This document shows positions 3,911-50,800 of a stretch of 64,000 bases of DNA, in pieces. Below the pieces are notes generated by a model. It saw only the letters and a program-made list of their open reading frames with translations. It was not told the DNA's origin and searched no databases. The position numbers were made by a program, and so were the translations under genes. Every line of letters starts with the position of its first letter. The first letter of the stretch is position 1. Source of the DNA: Callorhinchus milii (lineage: Eukaryota); contig NW_024704742.1 of NCBI RefSeq assembly GCF_018977255.1, positions 53,074,001 through 53,138,000 on the forward strand. The letters are read 5' to 3'.

Positions 3911-5629
3911 CTAAAGAAATATAAAAAAAAGTAAGAATATCCAGCATAGTAATTGGCAATTTGTGGCACTTATTTCATAATCCTAAATATATGTATACTT
4001 AAATGAGATTCCAGTCTAAATCACCCAGTAGTACAACAACTTGGAATACCAATAAGTTGCATCAGGTTTAAGTAGCTCCAATGTAAAAACTAACGTACAG
4101 AATTGTGGTTTGCCATGTTGATACATTTAAGACCCAACTATGAATAAAACTTGCAATTATCCTTACATCTGTCATCACTATTGCGTTTGTTGGGTGTATC
4201 CAAATTTGTAAACAGGCAAACGAGGACCTGCGCCCTAATTTTCCTTTCAAAGTCCTGATGGTGAAAGTTATATGAAGATACATTTTTAGTGATTTAATTA
4301 ATAATACAAAGATTTAACAGGAAACTTTTTCAGTAGGTGCATGGCAAAATTTAAAATTGAATTTTCTCTGCACCATAAACCTTTAATTAATGCAATTTAT
4401 TTGAGCTGCAAATAGCCACGGCTTTATATAATCAAAGAACTGTTGAGAATACGAATTACATGACCCTAATACTAAGCACTACTTACAAAGATTTTGAAAA
4501 ATTTAACCTGAACACATCACAAACATAAGTACTTAATACCTGCAGTATTTAGTATCTAAAGTTGTATTAGTATTCAAATCTACAAGAAATCTTTATAGCC
4601 TGCATCATATTAGTAACTACAATTTTATAGACATGTATATGTGTGCAAACAATGGGTAATCTATCCAGTTTGCCTTTGTTGTTGAAATTTTGGTTTGACA
4701 ATTTTACTATATATTCTGTGAAGCATTCTGAGACATTTCAATGATGTGATATATCAAATTCAAGGATTATTATTATTATAAATAACTACACTCAACTCCT
4801 CTCAATTCAAGAGAAAAAAAGTCAAGACAGCCAGTGTGGTGTAAGAAAATGCTGCAATGTCAAATGTGTAAACCTTTGGATGAGATGTTAAATTGAGGGG
4901 GTAGATTGGAGAAGGAGAAAGGTAAATGGGAAGTGCTAAAAACGCTAAAATGGCTCTAACATGTCATCAACGCCCCAACAGACAGGTGGTCCTACAGCAG
5001 AAAGCTTTCCAAATAGTGATTTCAATGGCAAGTTATACGGCTTTAGCGAGTTAAGCACCAGCAGTACCCTAACAGACACTGGCGTTTCCAAGCCTTGGCT
5101 TTTTACCAACCTGCACCTTATTCCGTATTCCATCCCACACGGGAATTTCCATGTGTAGGTGACAAACTTTGTCTGGTTTCAATACGCTTTAAGAATGCTG
5201 AGATTTCCGTGTGCGTCAACAAGTGTTTGCCTACAAAATACACAGGCACTACACTACACTTCACCGTATGATAAAGTATTATTTGGGTTGGTTTGAGCCA
5301 GAACCCATTGCGATAGACAATAAATAACCCCAACGCCTTTTATTTCTTTGGGGAAAAAAGTTTTTCTTCCTAAAACAAAAAGCAAAAATAAAACTCTTGT
5401 AAAATAAACCGAGAGGAGAGACGGGGTACTTAACCGCACTGCCTCAGCGGCCTGGCCTGCCCTGCCCTGCCTGCCCTGCCTGCCAGCCCTCTGCCTGCCA
5501 GCCCTCTGCCTGTTATAAAACAGACTCCATTCGCTTCCCAATGACTTCACTGGATGTTACACAACCGTACAACACACGTAACACCCACAGCCTGTGTGTT
5601 ATACAACTCAGGGCACCGGGAGGTCAAAC

Positions 5630-6232
5630 TGGGGGGGAGCGAGGGCGGTGTGTGGGAGAGGGGGAGGAGAGCGAGGGGAGGGGGAGTGAGAGGGGAGGGG
5701 GAGTGAGAGGGGAGGGGGAGTGAGGAGTGGGGGGGGGAGTGAGGAGTGAGGGGGGGGGAGTGAGGAGTGAGGGGGGGGGAGTGAGGAGTGAGGGGGGGGA
5801 GTGAGGAGTGAGGGGGGAGTGAGGAGTGGGGGGGAGTGAGGAGTGGGGGGGGGGGAGTGAGGAGTGGGGGGGGGGAGTGAGGAGTGGGGGGGGGGAGTGA
5901 GGAGTGGGGGGGGGGAGTGAGGAGTGGGGGGGGAGTGAGGAGTGGGGGGGGGAGTGAGGAGTGGGGGGGGGGAGTGAGGAGTGAGGGGGGGGAGTGAGGA
6001 GTGAGGGGGGGGAGTGAGGAGTGAGGGGGGGAGTGAGGAGTGAGGGGGGGAGTGAGGAGTGGGGGGGGGGAGTGAGGAGTGAGGGGGGGGAGTGAGGAGT
6101 GAGGGGGGGAGTGAGGGGGGGAGTGAGGGGGGGAGTGAGGGGGGGAGTGAGGGGGGGGGAGTGAGGAGTGAGGGGGGAGTGAGGAGTGAGGGGGGGAGTG
6201 AGGAGTGAGGGGTGAGAGTGAGGAGTGAGGAG
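5630..6232. repeat. G-rich tandem repeat (GnAGTGAGGAGT), G-quadruplex prone
   Basis: Dozens of GAGTGAGGAGT(GA) units separated by G runs of variable length. Confidence 0.95.
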
Positions 6233-6276
6233 AGGTTCATGAAACCCCAAATGAAAGAAACCCTTTCCCCAGTAAA

Positions 6277-6408
6277 GCCCCTCCAGACCGCCCCCCCCAG
6301 ACCCCCCCCAGCCTCAGACCCCCCCCCTCAGACCCCCAGACCCCACCCCCAGACCCCCCCCCCCCCCCAGACCCCGGCCTCAGACCCCAGACCCCCCCCC
6401 CCCCCCCC
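6277..6408. repeat. C-rich repeat (CnCAGA / CCTCAGACn) next to the exon 1 donor
   Basis: Repeated CAGACCCC and CCTCAGACCCC units. Confidence 0.85.
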
Positions 6409-6420
6409 GGAGACACTGAC

Positions 6421-6889
6421 CCAACTCCATCTCCCGCTGCAGCAGCTCCAGCGCCTCCTGGCAGCGGCCCCCGGTGACCAGCTCCTCGGCCCTGGCCTTC
6501 GCCCGGCCCCGCCGGCCCTGCGCCGGCAGCCACTTGTCCATCACGCAGCACAGGATCACGTTGGACCGGAGGGGCCGCGCCTCGGGGCCCGGCGCCGGCT
6601 CCCCGCACAGGCGGCACGGCACGGCGGGCTGCAGCTGCAGGCAGCGCCGGCACCAGGTGTGGCCGCACGGCAGGGTGACCGGGTCGCTCAGGAGCTGCCG
6701 GCAGGCGGGGCAGCACAGCAGGGCCCGGCCTCCCCGGCTCGGGGGCCCCCGCTCGTCCCGGGGCCCGCACCCCGCTCTCGCTCTGACCCCGGGGCCGCCG
6801 CCGCCATCGCCCATTCGCCGCTTGAAGCTGAAGAGCAGACAGTCCACCAGCGTGTCCAGCTGCTCCGGCCGCAAGGGCTCACAGCTCAT
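6421..6889 (-). CDS. LONRF1: LONRF1 coding exon 1 (first RING finger and start of TPR region)
   Basis: Translates MSCEPLRPEQLDTLVDCLLF...CPACRQLLSDPVTLPCGHTWCRRC...CRLC...DKWLP, a C3HC4 RING resembling LONRF exon 1. Ends at a phase-1 donor G|GTCAGT at 6421/6420. The start ATG at 6889 is inferred from an in-frame upstream TGA at 6977-6979. Confidence 0.88.
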
Positions 6890-7025
6890 CAACAGGCCGC
6901 CCGGGAGCGGGATCTGCCCGGCGGGGCGGTGTGGGTGTGGGGGGGGCTGGGGGTGTGGGTGTGGGGGTGTCGCCGCTCAGCCTCAGTCTCCGCCCGAAGA
7001 CGGCACTGCGCCTCCGACTGTTACC

Positions 7026-7132
7026 GACTGACCCCCCGCGGGCCGCGGCCCGGCCCTTTAAAGACTCCCCCACGTGCTCACACAGCGCGATCTCATTGGC
7101 TGAGAGGCACGTTCGGGCCCCTGTTTTGTAAC
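7026..7132 (-). promoter_or_regulatory. Putative LONRF1 core and proximal promoter
   Basis: Minus strand: Inr-like TCAGTC (7031-7026) about 30 bp downstream of TTTAAAG (7062-7056), and CCAAT at 7095-7099. Also CACGTG at 7071-7076, plus-strand CACGTT at 7108-7113 and D-box-like GTTTTGTAAC at 7123-7132. Confidence 0.6.
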
Positions 7133-7202
7133 AGGTCTCAGTGAAGAGGGAAACAGTCACAACAATGTAATCAATACACCTCCCGGGGGGGGGGGGGGGG
7201 GG

Positions 7203-7579
7203 TGATCAGCACAGCGTGTGATCAATACAGTGTCTGATCAGCACAGTGTCTGATCAATACAGTGTGTGATCAGCACATGTGATCAATATAGTGTGTGATC
7301 AGCACATGTGATCAATATAGTGTGTGATCAACACGTGTGATCAATATAGTGTGTGATCAACACGTGTGATCAATATAGTGTGTGATCAGCACATGTGATC
7401 AATATAGTGTGTGATCAACACGTGTGATCAATATAGTGTGTGATCAACACGTGTGATCAATATAGTGTGTGATCAACACGTGTGATCAATATAGTGTGTG
7501 ATCAACACATGTGATCAATATAGTGTGTGATCAACACGTGTGATCAATATAGTGTGTGATCAACACATGTGATCAATAT
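7203..7579. repeat. 29-bp minisatellite (GTGTGATCAATATAGTGTGTGATCAACAC), about 11 regular units plus degenerate units
   Basis: CACRTG recurs every 29 bp at 7274, 7303, 7332, 7361, 7390, 7419, 7448, 7477, 7506, 7535 and 7564. Confidence 0.95.
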
Positions 7580-7808
7580 GATAATAATAATAATCCTTGC
7601 ATTTGATATAGCACCTTATCACGTTGATGAAACGTCTCAAATGCATCCCAGAATATAAAAGTGTAGTGACTGTATATTTTGTGGGCGAAACACAGCAACC
7701 AATAGCACACAGTGGTGTCCCACAAACAGTTGCGGATTTAATGACCAAATTATCACACTGTCAGTGTCACTGCGCTGACACACTCATTCGCTCACTCATT
7801 CATGATGA

Positions 7809-8522
7809 CAACAACAACAATAAGATTACATTTGTTTAGCGCCTTTCACGTCGGGAGGACGTCCCAAGGCGCTGGACAGTGTACAGCATTTCAGACCCGA
7901 GCTGGGGTTAGGGTGGGGGAGAAGGGAGGGGAGGGGAAGGGGGGTCTTGAGGCGGGACTTGAAGGAGGCTAAGGAGGGGGTGAGGCGGAGTGATTGGGGG
8001 ATGGAATTCCAGAGGTTGGGGGCAGAGTGTCTGAAGGCTCTCCCGCCAATGGTGGGGCGGATGGGTCGGGGGAGCAGGCCAGAGCCGGCTAAGCGGAGGG
8101 AGCGGGCGGGTTGGTAGGGGTTTAGGAGGTCGCAGAGGTAGGGTGGGGCGAGGCCATGGAGGGCTTTGTATGTGAGGACCAGGATCTTGAACTGGATCCT
8201 CTGAAGGATAGAGAGCCAGTGGAGTTGGGCGAGAGTGGGGAAGATGGGGTCACGGAGTTTGGTGCAGGAGAGGACACGGGTTGCAGAGTTCTGGATTATC
8301 TGCAGCCTGTGGAGGGAGGAGTTGGGAAGGCCGACAAGCAGGGCACTTGCATAGTTGTGCCTGGAGGTGATGAATACATGAACAAGAGTTTCAGCGGCCT
8401 GAGGGGTGAGGTAGTGGCAGAGTCGGGCGATGTTACGGAGGTGAGGGAAAGCGGTTCATGGCTTGGATGTGGAGGAGAAAAGACAGTTGAGGGTCGAATA
8501 AGACACCAAGTTTCCTGACTGG
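7809..8522 (-). mobile_element. L2 LINE 3' fragment
   Basis: RT C-terminal region, stem-loop 3' end and (GTT)n tail on the minus strand. Confidence 0.85.
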
Positions 8523-8699
8523 AATCTATGTTGATCAACAAATGTGATTTATATAGTGTGTGTGATTTACAAGTTTTTACACATGTGGCAAATTGGGAAT
8601 CCAGATGTGGCGAAACTGCATTTTTATTATTTTTGATTTCTAAATAAAAAACGAATAATACTGTTGGAATCTGGGCAATGAACAGAATAAAACCCACTT

Positions 8700-9390
8700 T
8701 TTCTATTCAGCCCACTTTTAATAAAGAACCCGAGAACAGAGGAACCAAAGATACTCAGGGTGGGGGGGAATGAAATATTAAATTAGAGTTTTCTCGAATT
8801 GAGTCAAAAGAAAATTGAGTATGTTGAAACAAGACCATGAGTAATTGCAGGCTCAGTACAGTGAATTAGAAAAGAAAGCGCAGGAAATGTCTATTGCGGA
8901 ACAAACTCCAAGAGGACTTTCACATTTAAACCAAGTGGCAGAGTTACAACATGTAGCATCCGGAGCTGACCCTGAGAAACATTTGAGATGTGTGCAGAGT
9001 GCATGTCAATTGTATGGGATCCGAGAAGAGAAGGATAGACTTGGGAGTTCTCCAAATGACGCTGCCATTAAACCTTCGGCACCAATTACCTGTCGGAGTA
9101 CGTTCTGGTGATTATAATTATAAAAAAACGGTTGGGGAATTACAAAAGCTTTGTAACCCAGGCACTAACTGCATTAATCTGGCTATACAGACAAAACAGG
9201 AACTTAATGAGCATCCCCAAAGTTTTGTAAAGATTTATTGATGTGTATGCCTCTGGGACACTCAACATGACACAGAGGCTGCTCATTTTAAGGGTTTGTT
9301 CTTAAATAATTTAAGTACACCTATCAAAGGCAAAATAGATATGATTGTTGCATCTGCTGATCCGTTAGAAGATGTAGTGCTGTCAGACTA
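8700..9390 (+). mobile_element. Degenerate gag/capsid-like fragment (LTR retroelement or ERV)
   Basis: Frameshifted reading gives a coiled-coil-like LQAQYSELEKKAQE, then DPEKHLRCVQSACQLYGI, an MHR-like TKQELNEHPQSF, and AHFKGLFLNNLSTPIK. No LTR or pol seen. Confidence 0.5.
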
Positions 9391-9495
9391 AAGCGAATGT
9401 TTGGCAGGCCACATTTGGTTATCACCGCTGCAAGCACTTTTTCTGAATGATGCTTTCTTGGTACAATGCAATTTCCTTTTATAATAATGAGTTGT

Positions 9496-9882
9496 GGAGT
9501 CCTGTAGCTCAGTGGTTAGAGTCCTCGCCTTGCAAGTGAGAGACCTAGATTTGATTTCCAGCTGGGCAAAACATTGGGCAAGTTTCCTTCCTCCACACGC
9601 CTCTGTTTACCTAGCAGTAAGTAGGAACCTGGTTGTTAGTTGATTGGCAAATCACTTTTCTGGGGGTAATAATCGATTAAAAAAGTAAAAAACATTTGGT
9701 CACTTCAATCCATGACTGTTTGTGGGACACTGCTGTGCGCAATTGGCTGCCGAGTTTTGCCCACAAAAATATACAGTCAATTCACTTTATAGTATATTCT
9801 GTGAAGCACTTTGAGATGTCTAGAAGACATGAAAAGTGGTATATCAAATGCAAAGATTATTATTATTATTATTATTATTATA
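9496..9882 (+). mobile_element. tRNA-Ala-like SINE, long variant
   Basis: A box TAGCTCAGTGG, TGC anticodon arm, central GCCTCTGTTTACCTAGCAGTAAGTAGGAACC segment, L2-like 3' end and (ATT)n tail. Confidence 0.9.
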
Positions 9883-38642: not shown

Positions 38643-39654
38643 GTGAATTTCACAATTTTTCACAATCTTGAATTTTAACTAAAAAACTTATGTTTGATAT
38701 AGCACCTTTCACACTGGGAGGATGTCTCAAAGTACTTCACAGGACTTTAAAGGAAGGTGTAATGACTTCCCATTTTGTAGGCAAACACTGCAGCCAATTT
38801 GCGCACAGCACTATCCTACAAATAGAAATTAAATGAACGATTAATTTTATCTGAGTGACAAACAGGACAATAGTTTCATTGGATCTTTAACATCCGTTGT
38901 AAAACGGCACATCAAGCTCTTTCTAATAAATCAACCAAAAGGCGACACCAATGTTACTAGATCACTGCTTTATAGTGTCAACAATAGCTCAAAAGTTGAT
39001 ATAGGGTTTAAAACTCTCCACCTTCTGAATCAGTGGCCAAACTGCTACCAACTGAGCCAACCGTTGAGCGAGCAAAGAAAATGCTGCTTTGTTATCACTT
39101 CCACTTCTTTAGCTTTAACATCTGACAGATCTAGAACACTATTATTAGCTCTGGGAAACTGTCATGGGCTGGCAGTTAAATCACTTATTGAGAAATGTCT
39201 GGCGCAGTATATAATCTTGTTACAAGCACAATCAACGCAGATATAAATACTCTTGCAACATGATTAGAAGATCTGTAAATGTTGCTAAAACATACTTAGA
39301 GGAAAAGGATACTTTGAGATGGAGGATTGCTATCAGTATAAAATATTTCTCAGCTAAAATAATATAATTAATAAATTAATAAAATAATATTACAAAGTCA
39401 AGGTCTTGGGTGTAAAATTTCTCAGTTCATTAATTTTAGTTATCAAGCATACCAAAATTACACAGTCAGAAGGATCATCATTGGAATTTTTGCGAGTATA
39501 GTACTGAAGGTGAGATGATAGTCTGGAATTTGTTTTGTGGACAGCCAGATGTCTGATACATGCTGAAGCGATCAGCGTGGTAGCGCCCCCCGAAAGAAAA
39601 TGTTGAAGGAGCGGAAGTATATTTATTTCCCCCCAATGTAAAAAGCTTCCACTA

Positions 39655-39857
39655 TCGCCGTCGATCGTGAGTATAGATTTGTCAAAAGTGCTGCTGCCCA
39701 GGTCAAAAATGAGAACGTTCCTCTCCCCCTCTCTCTTCTTGTCCAGGGTGTGGGTGATGGCAGCTGTTGTCAGCTCATTGATGATGCAGAGGACATTGAG
39801 CCTGGTGATCACTCTGACATCTTTGGTTGCCTGATACTGGGAGTCATTGAAGTAAGG
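39655..39857 (-). pseudogene. HSP70-family fragment (ATPase domain)
   Basis: [65 protein letters not shown] aligns to the HSP70 consensus with many invariant residues mutated. Flanks are unrelated. Confidence 0.92.
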
Positions 39858-42800
39858 TTTGCACTGGCTCCTCACTCTCACCCACCCCGACCTCCGGCTT
39901 TCCACGCTCGCCCCCACCCCCACCAATTGTAAAAAGGCTGTGCTGCCTATTCAGAGTTCTACATGTGTATGCCACCTGTACATAAAAGTTTGCCTCTGTC
40001 TGGCACGGAGTGAGGGCTCTGGAGAGCTGTACCCGGCTTGCCCAATTCCCAAAGAGTATTAGCTGGTTGGAACTGATGTAAAGCAGCAATTGAAATGTTC
40101 TATTGCTACGGTTTGCAGATTTCTGTTTCTTTCTGGCTGAGGAGGGATGAAAATCTGTTGACTTAAAGCTCAATTAGGTTACCTATCGCTGAACGATTGG
40201 TTGTCAGTGCATTTTAAAGAGGTCAGCCAATGTTACAGCAAGGTGAGTAATCTCGACAAGTTTGCAGATCAGGGCAAAACAGAAACATCTTGGTGGCTCA
40301 GACGAATAGTCTTTTTAACAGCAGGAGATTAAACAAACAAAGAGATCTTGATCCCATTTCATCGCCTCCCTACCAACACCCGCAATAAAGTACAATGCTG
40401 CCCAATTAAAAGTCGAGTGTCAGCCAGATTTATCCATACCCTTCTCTTCCGACTGCTGCACTATGTAACTTTGTGTCTGGGTGAGGAATTCAAACAGGCA
40501 CAGATCACGATGAACGAGACATTCAAACTGCAGGAGGGAGAAGATGGTGAGGAGCTGAGGGGGTGTTAATTGATTAGAATGCATTACAGACCATCTCAAA
40601 TATCTCATTAAAATGCAAGAGCATGTGAGACTGTAGGGCCCAAAACCAATGCAACTGTTTCATTATAACACAATACAATACAAATTTATATTTATTTAGC
40701 ATTTTTCGGAGTTGGAGGATGTCCAAAAGCGCTTACCAGTGCCATGGAGCACCATGTTATGCCATCAACGGCAACATATGTTTGGGAAAACATGGTGAAC
40801 ATGCCTGAACCGTTTTCAATGCCAGGCTTTCCCTGCCCCCCAGCCTATCTGCCCACCCTCCGGCCTGGCCCCCCACCCACAGATTTACCTCTGCAGTGGA
40901 TGTGCTGTACTTTCAACAAAAACAAACATTGCTGATTGCAGCACTCCGAAACACTTGCCTGCATGAAGGGCACAATATGAATACAAGTCAGAACAATATG
41001 ATAGTATGAACCAAGACAGTAGAACAAGAGAACATGGGTTTAGAATTGAAAAGGGCAATAGCAAGACAGATACCAGCAAATTTTTCTTTACCCAGTAGGT
41101 AACCAGCCAAACAAGTCTGAGAGTTCCACATTTGCACCGTTGTGATTTGGAATCCATTTTTCTTTTAAGAATTGTGGAAATATGATTCTAAGTTAGGATC
41201 AAATTTAAGATTTTTCTCCAATTCTACACAATTCAAAATGTTAAGGCAAATTGGTCTTACAAGCTAAGATGAGGTGGAATTTCAGGCCTCCAGTTTGGAA
41301 TCATAACATAATAATGATAATCCTTGCATTTGATACTATACCTTATCACGTCATTGAGACATCTCAAAGCGCTTCACAGAATATACTGTATACTTTATGG
41401 GTGAAATTGCGAAAAGCAATGTCCCACAAACAGTCATGGATTGGGTCACCAAATTATTATTATTTATTCATTTATTTATTTTGGAGAGATGATTACCTCC
41501 AGAAAATGATCTAACTGCCGAATTCCTGCTTACTGCTAGATAAACAGAGCCAGGTGGAGTAAGGAAACTTACATAAGGTTTCACTCTGCCCACTCCAACC
41601 TGAGTCCTCTTTTTTACAAGGCGAGTGCTCTAATCAATAGTATACAGAACTTTAATTAGACTCCAGTGTTTGGTTATATTGGCTGTCTCACCAAGGCACC
41701 GAGGTGGAGCACTATTTATCAGGCAGCCAGGAGTTGCAGACAAGTCACAGCAGAATGTGAGCATTTGCTCAAGTAATGAAAGCACCTCCCAGTGTGATCT
41801 GTTCCTGAAGTGACATTAATCCTGAGAAGCAATGACAGGAAATCTTTCCTTACCTTTGTTCTCTCATAATCCAAGACCAGTCTTGAAAATTATTTTTTGA
41901 CCTCTCGAGAAGCTTGTCTTCCCTGGCTCCGGCCTCCTGCTTGTTCCTTGTGTCCTCAACAGCTGCACTTTCAGCCACTACGCTTCAAATCTTACACCCG
42001 AACACTCTCCCTGAATCCTCGGTGATATAAATGCAAGTTGTTGTTGTTGGCTGCAATAGCTAGTTTCACTGTGCACGAGTAACACAGGAAATGACATCAG
42101 CAACAACCTGATAACCCAGAAGTCAGGCTTTTTACCCTGCGGAGACTCAAATTGCTGAATATTTGATCAAGTGTCTTGCGACCTCTCTTCCTGTGTGCTA
42201 AGCAATCGCAACATGCAGGAAATAACATTGATGACAAATGAATGACTCAGAAGTCGGACTATTTTAGCTCGTGGGAAGCCAAAATGGCTGGCTTTCAGGT
42301 CATCAGATTTTTGCTGACATTGTAGAATGCCATAAGTGATATTGGCATGTAGTTAGCAATGAATTTGAAGTTCTGCAAAGGTCAGAATTCCACGCAACTG
42401 CACTTATTAGAAGCAGGCATAGTGTGGAGAAAAATGTAACATTTCATAACGGCATTGAATCTGTTATGAACTGTCACATTTTGCAAGTTTCAGTACCGTA
42501 TCTTCTGTCTGTTTTACGATCGATTTTCCTCACATGTTTTGTAAACTCAATACATTAATTGGTTACTGAATGCTTTCCACCACAACGTGACTCGTTTGGA
42601 TTAACAGTTCTCTGGTCAGCCTCAGTTATAGAAATACAGTATGTATGAAGTTGCAGTAAAAGACATTCAGTGATCCCTCTTTAATAGATTTTCTCATTAG
42701 TGAGTACACTGTAATATTACTTAGATTAACAGGACTCTTTGTTTTTCAAAATGCATTTGTTTAATAACCAGAGCATTCCAGGATTAGGAAGGTAAGAGGT

Positions 42801-46160: not shown

Positions 46161-46948
46161 ATTAAACATATTAAATGATTGTTGGAACATGTGGAGGTGT
46201 AAGACATGCAAGCACATGCACATAATAATTATATTTTGGAGTTGCTCTGCAGGGAGCAGACAATATAATACAACTGCAGGAACTCCCCTCCTCTGGCTGG
46301 ACAGATTCTAAATCACTGAGCTTGGCTTACACATCTGCATCTAAGTGTAACCATGGCATGAATCAAAACCTTTGAATCCTAGCCAATGCTGGATTGTAAA
46401 TTGACTTATGAATGTTTGCATGAATCTGAGAAAATGACAGTGACATAAATGAGGAACAGCAATAAAAGATGTTCTACCATAAATACACATTTTCTCCACC
46501 AATTACTTTACAGTAAATGCTGTGAAGCTCTTTGAAACATCCTCTTCACGTGAAAGGCAATACATCAAAGGATTACTAATATTATAGGAGGATTGATTAG
46601 AATACTGGAGCATTGAGCTGGATGATAATTTATTCCAATGCAAAGATGTACAAAGATGGTCATTTTGTACGATTTCAGAATTACTGGGCTAAAAAAATAA
46701 GCAGTAGATATATAAGCAAATAAAAGTTTTATTTGCAAAATTAATTCAGGAAATATAAAAGCTAATTTCTTGTAAAATGCAATTATCAAATCTAAATTGT
46801 GTGAAAATTGCAGTAAATGCTGTGATAGGTATTGTCAGTGATAATTATGACATCATTGTCACATCACAACACATTATATTACATCACATTATCACAGTTT
46901 TCATCCCAATCGAGGAATGGGATTATTTAGATATGCATGTAATGACAT

Positions 46949-47216
46949 AATAATAATAATCCTTGCATTTGATACAGCGCCTTATTATGTCTTTGAGATG
47001 TCTCAAAGCGCTTCACAGAATATACTGTAAAGTGAATTGACTGTATATTTTGTGGGCGAAACACACCAGCCAATTACGCACAGCAGTGTCCTACAAACAG
47101 TCGTGGATTGAGTGACCATATTATTAATATTTTGAAGGGATTATTACCACTGGAAATAAAAAACAGGTCCTCTCACTTGCGACTCGAGAGCTCTAACCAC
47201 TAGGCTACAGGACTCC
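46949..47216 (-). mobile_element. tRNA-Ala-like SINE, internally deleted
   Basis: Head and tail present, middle missing. Confidence 0.85.
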
Positions 47217-47338: not shown

Positions 47339-47860
47339 TTAAACTGTCAGTGGGCACATTCTCAGCAGCTCAAAGTTTTTCCCACTGTCATTTCCACCGG
47401 GACAGAAGAGAGGATAAATTGTCTCAGTGAAAGTGTGGGTGAAAGTGTGGAGATGAGACATGTTATCGGTGTTGTAAAATGACACCTATCCCCCCTCATA
47501 GTTCAGGTAGACTCCCAGCTTCCTGGTCTCGCTCAGGGGTAGGAGGGTGGCAGGTGAGGTACAAGCTTCATATTCATCCCATTTGTCAGCCATACAACCC
47601 AGTATCCGTTTGCTGGTGTTAGTGTGATGTCTCCTTTCCCGTGACGGACTCTCTGGCCACTCCCATATCCCACAGTCTTGTTTGTCATCTGTCCCTCCAA
47701 GTAATGTCTCCCTGATGTGAAACCCTCAGATCCCAGGACACAGGCACAGGAATCCAACCTCTTCGGGGAGTCAGGGAGTTGCTGCTGTTTGTCTCCATGT
47801 CTCACACTGGTCAGGTCCTCAGACAGGATGAGGTCGGCATGGGCTATGTCAGCCTCCAAC
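47339..47860 (-). pseudogene. B30.2/PRY-SPRY terminal exon of a TRIM-like gene, disabled
   Basis: AHADLILSEDLTSVR...LPDSPKRLD...CVLGSEGFTSGRHY...GYWVVWL...KLGVYLNYEGG*VSFYN...[19 protein letters not shown], with frameshifts and a TAG at 47486-47488. Confidence 0.9.
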
Positions 47861-50800
47861 ATTTGATGTAATCCTTGTATTTGATATAGCGTTCCTTCCT
47901 CCCTCCCTCCCGCCCTCAAAATATTTTTCCATTGATAGTCTTCCTTTAACTATGTTCTGTAGTGTTCAGTTAGAAGCTCAATTGCCACTCCCCTTGTTGG
48001 TGTAAGAGTGGAAACAATTCATACACGTTTTCTAAGGGAAGAGTAAGGGAAGAGTGAGAAGTAAGAGTGAAAGGAAATGAGACATAATATATCAGTAAAG
48101 AATAATTGATTGATTTGGAAACACTAGCCAGATTCATTCTGTAACGTTCTTTCCTTTTTTTCTCTATGAAGCATTTTAGTGTCCAGAATTTGGCAAACTG
48201 TTGAATTCATTCTGTAGAATATGCAGTTCTTAAAAGAAACTTTCAGAAAAACACTTCAAAATGACGGCTGCATTCAAGAATTTACCACATGCCGGAAAAC
48301 TCTGAAATGCTATATAAATAGCCTTGCTCTGATTAGCTGAGTGGTTTGAGCTGGCTGAATTCCATCAGTACTTTAAACCATAATCCAAAAGCAGTCAATA
48401 AGGCAAATATATCTGGAATGTAAAAGCAAGGATCTGCCATCAACTAACAAGCGGGTCCCTAATTACTGCGAGGTAAACAGCGATATGTGGAGTAAGGAAC
48501 CTTGCCTAAGATTTCACCTACCTGGGAATCAAACCTCTCAATTGCAAGGCGAATGCTCTGACCAATACTCTACCAGGACCACACATTTCCTCTTTCCTCC
48601 CTTTTTTGGCTGAATAAATAGACCCCCAAATCCTGGAGTTTTATTTTGTGAATATAAAAAGCAACTTTAATGGTTCCATGAAAAATCTTTCTTAAGCTTC
48701 ATTGGATCCATTACAAGCCTTAACATCAGAACTAAGACATTCAAACTGAGATCAGGAAATATTCCTTCACATAGAAGGCTGAGAAAATCGTTGCTCCTAG
48801 GAAGCTGTAGAAGCAAAATCAATAGTTAGTTTAAAAGAGAAATTGACATTACTTGATCAGTAGAAGTATTAAGTAGACGTATTGGCGAAAAGTTGGGCAT
48901 TGGGATTAAAAGATCTGACAAGGTATAAAACATTGCTTGAACAGGGCCAATGGGCTGAACGTCCTAAATGAATATGTTGGGGTCCTAATGCCTTGACTTT
49001 GGTGAAACAGCACCTGTGTTCTCTGGCACAGACATGTGTGGTAAGAGCCTTCTCCTGGGGAACAGATTATGCAACAACAACAACAACAACAAGATTCCAT
49101 TTATAAAGTGCCTTTCACGTCGGGAGGACGTCCCAAGGCACTGGGCAGTTGGGTCAGGACTGGCACTCCAGAACTGGCAAACAGTAACTCTGTTTCTGTG
49201 AGTTCTCAGTAGCTTTTAAGCATGAAAAAGAGTTTCCATACATTCTAAATAATAAATTAAATAACCCCTGCATTTGTTATAGTGCCTTTTGCATCAGGAG
49301 AATATCTTCACAAGATTTACTGTAGTGACGTTAAATAGGTGAACACTGTAGTCAATTTTCACACAGCAATGTTCCCACAAACAGCCATGAAGTGAGTGAT
49401 CAATTTTATTCGGGGGATTGTTGGCCTGGACACCAGGAGAAACTCGCTTCTCTTTTTGAGTAGTGCCATGGGATCTTTAACATCCACCTGAACATGGGAC
49501 CTCAGTTTAACATCTTATCTGAAGGACGGATTCTAGACTCCACACTGATGAAAAAAATCGACTTTATAAGATACAAACTCATATCAGTTGCTGATATCGC
49601 TTGAAGCTTACCATTCAGCTCACTAACTGTCAACTCCCCCTGTCTCAGCGAGCAAGCATAAAATTCTTTTATGAGCTTTTCTATCCACTCTAAAGCTATT
49701 AAGGTCATATGCTAAGTAGCTCCTTTCCTGCAAGCAGGACTGCTCTCTGCAAGAAGAATATGTGAACCACAAGCCATCTTTGACTTGCTTCTCCAGTGAT
49801 AGAAAGAAAAAATTACCTTGGACCTAACCCAAAATTGCTTCCAAAGATTTGTTTGAAATACAATGATATTGTCCATGTTCTCTTGTTACCTTCCTCCAGT
49901 CCCTTCAGAAAAGGTTGCAGACTTCATGCTATGGATGTGAAACAACCATTATCCTATTGAGTGGATTGTACCACAGAACTCAGGAAGTTAAGACAATTAT
50001 TTATGCCAGTGAATGTCAATTTTTACTGTCTTCTGTGTCCAGACAGAAATCACTTATGATTTCCTGATTGAATTTGCTGAATTCCTTTGAGGCAATGATC
50101 AAAGTTATGTTATTAGATACGGATTTTGATCCTCATTCCATGGTGAGAAAATTGCTGAAAATGGGGTGGGCAGACGTGTGTGAAATTTACAGCATGTGAC
50201 TTTTCTTTCAACAATCCTGAAAACTGTATTGCTGGAGAAGGTGTGGTGAGAGCACTGCTCTTTCTCTACTAAACCATCTCCCTTGCCTTTACCGTGATTG
50301 TTAACATGAAAGCTCAGCAAACCATGAAGGCAATTGCCAATCAGAGCAGGACTTCAAATTCTACACACGGATATGGTAAGTGCGATGTGCTTTTATGTCA
50401 AATGTTTGTGAATGCTAATTTTTATTCCATTCCAGCATAAATGATTTAGTATTTCCTGATCTGTTAAAGTCATCTAATTTACACCCTTCCATCAAAAGGA
50501 GAAAGTGCAAATCAAACCATTTAGTTCAAATGCATGAATCAAAAAATGAAACATTTATACTTGGCAAAATTCCTAACCAGTTCTCTGGCAACTGAATCCC
50601 CCTGAATATCTGTAATTTATCTGATTTGTTGGATAGTTCATTTTGACTTCAGTGTTTTCTTAGTGCTGTATTCAAGACAAGATTAAGGTGACAATCTAGT
50701 CTCCAATAATGGGGTTAGAAATGTGACATGTAATGATAACGATAATAAATAATTCTTGCATTTGATATAGTGCCTTATCTTGTCGCTAAGACTTCTGAAA

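Follow-up and report, generated by a model that had tools for sequence, protein, structure and literature searches.

Upstream of lonrf1l in Callorhinchus milii lies a minisatellite whose 29-bp units carry eleven E-boxes, six of them CACGTG and five CACATG. The best explanation is that this is probably a locus-specific repeat that expanded through slippage where the CpG island of lonrf1l ends, and that its E-boxes are incidental and not needed for clock or light control of the gene. The array was analyzed within a window of 64,000 nucleotides (contig NW_024704742.1), to which all coordinates refer. The gene is equated with human LONRF1 or zebrafish lonrf1l by its database name. An earlier note on this DNA had interpreted the array as a copy-number-tunable enhancer in which the CpGs switch units between strong and weak sites; taken as a whole, that interpretation is partly supported.

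TRF places the 29-bp array at 7217-7579, with 12.4 copies, 95% matches and a score of 608. Its short units run head to tail with high identity, as in a minisatellite. A finer division is given by the 26 TGATCA sites in 7203-7575, where cutting yields four 16-mers and then, from 7267, eleven units of 13+16 bp. The parts of the array and its promoter-side edge are as follows.

7267-7579, unstranded: eleven 29-bp units, each a 13-mer with an E-box plus a 16-mer, the last unit cut at 23 bp by the SINE-like tail (TRF and TGATCA cuts)
7203-7266, unstranded: two 32-bp units, made of four TGATCA-headed 16-mers and having no E-box (TGATCA cuts; greater age presumed)
7185-7202, unstranded: G run at the promoter-side array edge (sequence)
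7166-7178, unstranded: half unit, degenerate, lying promoter-ward of the G run (family D4, at 85-92% to the half units of the array; its shortness means that it could be chance)

The earlier note had placed the E-box array at 7203-7579. Eleven boxes are indeed found from 7267 onward, but the first 64 bases contain none. Its description of 29-bp units, six with CACGTG and five with CACATG, agrees with the TRF result and the motif positions, and the TGATCA flanks and quasi-palindromic form that it reported are equally evident. The 32-bp units at 7203-7266 are likely an older form of the array unit. The ten complete 16-mers of the 29-bp units are all identical, and the 13-mers occur in only three variants among the eleven units, namely A-type CACGTG (six), G-type CACATG (three) and A-type CACATG (two). 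CACGTG is found at 7332, 7361, 7419, 7448, 7477, and 7535, and CACATG at 7274, 7303, 7390, 7506, and 7564. Each CACATG lies within the palindrome CACATGTG (5/11 units) and overlaps a CATGTG; counted as CANNTG, the array holds 16 hexamers at 11 places. As single-stranded DNA, the whole array of quasi-palindromic units folds at -80.1 kcal/mol (z -4.4), and 0/100 shuffles were as good, although this score is inflated as shuffling also removes the periodicity.

The near edge of the array is 314 bp upstream of the lonrf1l start codon annotated in RefSeq (at 6889). Based on a TATA-like element and an initiator-like TCAGTC, transcription is predicted to start at ~7029, ~175 bp from the array, which would then extend from about -175 to -550. 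The distance of ~170 bp given in the earlier note is in line with this. The elements of the promoter region and of intron 1 are listed below.

6421-6889, reverse strand: coding part of lonrf1l exon 1, RING finger, within the CpG island
7026-7031, reverse strand: initiator-like TCAGTC, which puts the start at ~7029 (predicted)
7056-7063, reverse strand: TATA-like element CTTTAAAG (predicted)
7071-7076, unstranded: lone canonical CACGTG of the proximal promoter, not part of the array (motif scan)
7095-7099, reverse strand: CCAAT box (motif scan)
7108-7113, forward strand: non-canonical E-box CACGTT (motif scan)
7123-7132, forward strand: D-box-like site of the proximal promoter, GTTTTGTAAC (predicted, 1 mismatch to the consensus)
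5512-5607, reverse strand: intron 1 cluster of three D-box-like sites (5512, 5556, and 5598, with starts 44 and 42 bp apart)

CACGTT is a non-canonical E-box with a role at clock genes. The CpG island of lonrf1l has 74% GC and a CpG o/e of 0.78, and the array, which lies outside the island, has 38% GC and an o/e of 0.53. Among the 24 sequencing runs listed, 20 share some words with 6900-7620 and one shares at least half; no RNA run among these 24 matched the region. Two DNA-type runs of C. milii contain almost none of these words, which does not prove absence. Small shares in organisms B-E and in small runs were left out of account. Four of the runs (X1, X4, X9, and X12) were aligned to 6421-7202, all as contigs, and stretches that X4, X9, and X12 leave uncovered were given no weight. 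A contig from one run (X1) spans 6935-7202, up to the array edge, with six differing letters. The two that were specified, at 7011 and 7064, have a depth <5 and may be errors, and neither is within the promoter motifs. A contig from another run (X9, which is RNA only by guess) covers exon 1 and ends at 6946 inside a GGTGTG repeat; because DNA contigs also break in this repeat, that end does not locate the lonrf1l start. At the protein level, the start of C. milii lonrf1l aligns ~70 residues into sawshark LONRF1, so that its N-terminus is shorter (window 6889-6976). An earlier RefSeq model, XP_007890968.1, began 116 residues further downstream than the current C. milii protein.

On its other side the array adjoins dispersed elements, beyond which a single further unit was found.

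7578-7753, reverse strand: dispersed SINE-like element, its AT-rich tail adjoining the array (many window copies, ~70-82% identity)
7808-8522, reverse strand: dispersed LINE-like 3' fragment (window copies with 68-75% identity; open frame 7826-8455)
8532-8562, unstranded: relic 29-bp unit, E-box lost (87-90% identity to array units)

We take the first element to be a SINE, in a presumed orientation, and the second is presumably L2-like; the latter gave no Pfam match at E<=0.01. The relic is ~950 bp from the array, past both insertions, and it matches the truncated last array unit at 20/23 bases. It may be the product either of an insertion that split a short array or of an end duplication, in the form of a long target-site duplication. 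Apart from the unit similarity itself, no short clean target-site duplication was found at the insertion ends. The position of the relic beyond the insertions, together with the homogeneity of the array, suggests that the expansion is younger than the unit. Besides the relic, no match to the unit (any rotation, <=8 mismatches) was found in the 64-kb window. Derivation of the unit from the adjacent SINE-like or LINE-like element was considered and rejected, as it does not align to their copies. Just past the relic, 8563-8590 contains more TG-rich unit-like sequence, with CACATGTG at 8580, and may be further decayed array. Elsewhere in the window, an HSP70-like fragment (39390-39950, reverse strand; Pfam HSP70, E 2e-19) is probably a pseudogene piece, and a PRY-domain fragment (47533-47949, reverse strand; E 4e-19) is possibly a TRIM-like gene piece or a pseudogene.

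The mixture of CACGTG and CACATG units had been read in the earlier note as CpG decay that switches sites between strong and weak, unit by unit. The pattern argues against independent decay of this kind. The plus-strand deamination form is found in 0/11 array units. All five non-canonical units are CACATG, with 0 CATGTG in register, and 3/5 of them carry a second, linked variant base. The two-sided chance that five deamination events all fall on one strand is 1 in 16, which is weak as a sole argument. The presence of just three variants and the lack of the plus-strand form suggest that the mosaic is the result of repeat turnover, through which two or three mutations were spread. The 16-mer at 7203 minus 3 nt, in a single deletion, gives the observed G-type CACATG unit, and a G-type CACATG unit adjoins the 32-bp units. 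From there, two substitutions lead through A-type CACATG to A-type CACGTG, with every intermediate observed. An alternative path, with deletion to CACGTG first and one or two losses of the CpG later, takes hardly more steps, but its intermediate is absent. As the slightly simpler reading, CACATG may be the older state, in which case the CpG was gained and not lost. Counted against the best explanation is that the CpG-bearing variant is the commonest (6/11), opposite to the usual CpG loss.

The origin of the array can be put together as follows, in a presumed order. A 16-bp TGATCA-headed unit would have doubled to 32 bp, and one 3-bp deletion would have produced the 29-bp unit and, with it, the E-box core. 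The SINE-like and LINE-like insertion would have separated one unit (8532) from the rest. Expansion of the part nearer the promoter would have come next, aided by its hairpin-forming palindromes (hairpins may promote slippage), and two further point changes would have spread through the array copies. The E-boxes would be a by-product of a CA/TG-rich unit.

How unusual the motif is depends on what is counted. The array repeat itself is far beyond chance, as its TRF score attests, and its eleven boxes are copies of one motif, not eleven independent events. Throughout the window, CACRTG was observed 70 times against 55.7 +/- 7.7 expected, and 4/100 shuffles reach 70. When the unit was shuffled 20,000 times with its dinucleotides preserved, 7.8% of the shuffles held CACGTG and 43% held CACRTG/CAYGTG, high rates that stem from the CA/TG-rich unit. 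Shuffling by base composition gave 0.3% and 1.6%, respectively. Among 29-mers elsewhere in the window, 0.2% contain CACGTG, 2.0% CACRTG/CAYGTG, and 14% any CANNTG. The rarity of CACGTG in these 29-mers and in the base-composition shuffles gives slight support to the earlier note. The finding that 6/10 CACGTG sites of the whole window fall within the array likewise counts against an incidental motif. As for the repeat, 5/14 of the tandem-repeat loci in the window, including the two best-scoring, are within 2.1 kb around the lonrf1l CpG island. In human, minisatellite VNTRs are reported to be enriched in CpG islands and in the DNA upstream of genes (PMC8096271). On its other side, at the start of intron 1 (5675-6406), the island is bordered by a G-rich repeat with a 20-bp unit, 540 bp in all, and by a C-rich one.

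Further analysis concerned the spacing of the boxes. In mouse CLOCK:BMAL1 reporters, cooperation is described at spacers of 6-8 nt and ~17, with a drop at 4, 10, and 20 (PMC3043000). In the array, E-boxes are separated by no other spacers than 21, 23, and 25 nt, and the 29-bp period misses the optimum of a 7-nt spacer by 0.51-0.54 helical turn. For the one array box examined, no second box (<=2 mismatches to CACGTG) was found at 6-8, 16-17, or 27-28 nt, and the proximal box at 7071 has no E1-E2 pair (>=3 mismatches). The earlier note had called the array phased; the boxes are evenly spaced, but spacers half a turn away from the CLOCK:BMAL1 optimum suggest that they are not phased in the helical or cooperative sense, an argument by extrapolation, since the published reporter series did not include a 23-nt spacer (PMC3043000). 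Like the tandem E1-E2 elements of CLOCK:BMAL1, the array lines up multiple E-boxes close to a putative clock/light gene; it differs from them in that their spacer is reported as 6-7 or ~17 nt (PMC3043000), as against 21-25 nt in the array.

The canonical CACGTG core of a single CLOCK:BMAL1 site, on the other hand, is present in six copies, and single E-boxes are reported to suffice for CLOCK:BMAL1 recruitment (PMC3043000). In zebrafish cells, 4x per1b E-box, whose 3' flank is likewise a T, serves as a clock reporter (PMC3973289; PMC3516543). Less than 0.7% of mouse E-boxes are described as bound by CLOCK:BMAL1, and liver-bound sites show an enrichment of G/C at the second base upstream (PMC10182026). 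The array boxes have the context caaCACGTGtga, with G/C at that base on one strand and not on the other, and the promoter box is alike. An argument from the flanks against CLOCK:BMAL1 was dropped, the G/C flank being present on one strand only. CpG methylation blocks binding to CACGTG. By analogy with these systems, bHLH factors could bind the array independently and additively, provided that its DNA is open and free of methylation.

Other inputs for light and the clock are found outside the array. The light regulation of lonrf genes in teleosts cited in the earlier note agrees with published reports. In zebrafish, lonrf1 genes are strongly light-induced, and one is described as dependent on the D-box factors Tef1 and Tef2 (PMC3039656); lonrf1l shows 3.59-fold induction in the pineal gland (PMC3973289). 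Fugu Lonrf1 is reported to be induced 3.85-fold in constant light (PMC5394683). D-boxes are presented as central to zebrafish light induction (PMC3039656; PMC3516543), and the cry1a D-box as necessary for the light response (PMC3516543). At the lonrf1l locus, a search with a D-box consensus and 1 mismatch allowed gave 50 matches in the window. The three in intron 1 have their starts ~four helical turns apart, and the site at 5598 is an exact copy of the functional zebrafish cry1a D-box, the only one in the window. A triple as tight as this cluster was obtained in 9.5% of 20,000 random placements anywhere and in 0.8% within 4500-9500. Local shuffles held three D-box-like sites in 0/3000, for a region that was picked after it had been seen, and a second, loose triple is present at 46873-46951. 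The 2/100 shuffles obtained with one D-box-like pattern are not a fair test, as that pattern was devised with the sites already in view. In the promoter, 7056-7132 is compact and includes the TATA-like element, CACGTG, CCAAT, CACGTT, and the D-box-like site. It resembles an E-box/D-box module of the per2 type, and shuffles of 6990-7185 held CACGTG and a D-like site together in 6/3000. The likeness to the zebrafish per2/cry1a light modules is thus an E-box with a nearby D-box-like site, along with the cry1a D-box at 5598 (PMC3516543). These matches are outside the array and are predicted from sequence.

Such sites are suggestive and, as judged from their motifs, are the likelier clock/light inputs of lonrf1l. 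The array need not be invoked to explain this control, with an E-box and D-box-like sites present elsewhere at the gene. Light and clock input would most likely pass through the promoter E-box at 7071, CACGTT, and D-box-like sites, both the one at 7123 and those of intron 1. If bHLH factors bind the array, they would act as independent dimers, without the spacing for CLOCK:BMAL1 cooperation. Any effect of the array would be at most modest and additive, and dependent on its CpGs staying unmethylated; the lack of a large effect is itself presumed.

Alternatively, the array may be an unmethylated homotypic cluster to which USF, MYC:MAX, TFE-family factors or CLOCK:BMAL1 bind as independent dimers, with lonrf1l output following the number of CACGTG units. 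This is a serious but doubtful possibility. It is in keeping with six canonical boxes within ~550 bp of the predicted start, with the reported activity of multimerised E-boxes in zebrafish reporters and light induction of teleost lonrf1 genes, and with precedents in human TYMS, TERT, and TRIB3. Like regulatory promoter VNTRs, the array is adjacent to a promoter and its unit has a transcription factor motif (CACGTG in 6/11, CACATGTG in 5/11). The 28-bp VNTR in the human TYMS 5' UTR (TSER, rs34743033, with rs2853542), which is proposed to bind USF and to act according to copy number (PMC4184792), is similar to it in its near-identical unit length and in having an E-box in some repeats that a one-base variant removes in others. 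However, the TYMS repeat is described with 2-3 copies, in the 5' UTR, and with known alleles and binding data, whereas the array has 11 copies, is upstream of the start, is AT-richer, and is known from sequence alone. Human TERT VNTR2-1, a 42-bp minisatellite in intron 2, shares with it the CACGTG-bearing repeats, many of which have the canonical motif (PMC2915984). It differs in being intronic, longer in unit and known to be polymorphic, and no sequence relation is expected. A 2021 PNAS paper is said to have found enhancer activity for VNTR2-1. The 33-bp VNTR of the human TRIB3 promoter, where output rises ~5-fold from 1 to 5 copies under stimulation, is a proven copy-number-tunable promoter repeat (PMC7425993). 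Its unit is described as the duplicate of a conserved single-copy C/EBP-ATF element, whereas the E-box of the array seems to have been born inside the repeat, with the likely functional sites outside. By analogy in position and motif, the array is at most a promoter repeat of the TYMS/TERT/TRIB3 type. Against the cluster stand the spacing off the cooperative optimum and the other E- and D-box-like sites, which could account for regulation. Moreover, the array is outside the CpG island and against retro-elements, classes of which are reported as hypermethylated in C. milii, where expressed start sites are mostly unmethylated (PMC5437953); this position was counted in favor of incidental E-boxes in a slippage-grown repeat.

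A stronger form of the enhancer reading, in which a CACGTG formed de novo in one unit of an old minisatellite beside a light-inducible gene, spread against CpG decay to 6/11 copies, and made the array what would now be an unmethylated and copy-number-variable clock/USF enhancer atop an ancient D-box module, observed at its birth, is unlikely. DEC/HES/MNT-type factors are E-box repressors, and the array might be a sink or platform for them, or else a spacer that shields the CpG island from SINE/LINE methylation. It sits right between the island and a ~950-bp stretch of retro-elements, and dec1 is reported to repress E-box reporters in zebrafish cells (PMC3973289). However, the intron-side repeats also flank the island and have no E-boxes, and either role is improbable. 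Least credible is membership of the unit in a dispersed family, of satellite or transposon origin, that has nothing to do with the lonrf1l promoter. The array does abut retro-elements, but the unit aligns to neither of them and its only other match in 64 kb is the local relic. No paper on the locus was found among the matches listed from the open-licence literature.

If the array is neutral, as the favored account of slippage at the CpG-island edge would have it, it shows that a motif-rich promoter repeat can seem designed when one motif was merely copied. If it acts, repeat tuning of the TYMS/TRIB3 type would be extended to cartilaginous fish and a new enhancer would have arisen by repeat turnover, although the mechanism would not be new. 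Were it such an enhancer at its birth, allele length would provide a natural dose series in a cartilaginous fish. What may be the more useful lead comes from the intron 1 cluster of D-box-like sites, together with the E-box/D-box promoter: direct light induction of genes of the lonrf1 type, known from teleosts, could predate bony fish.
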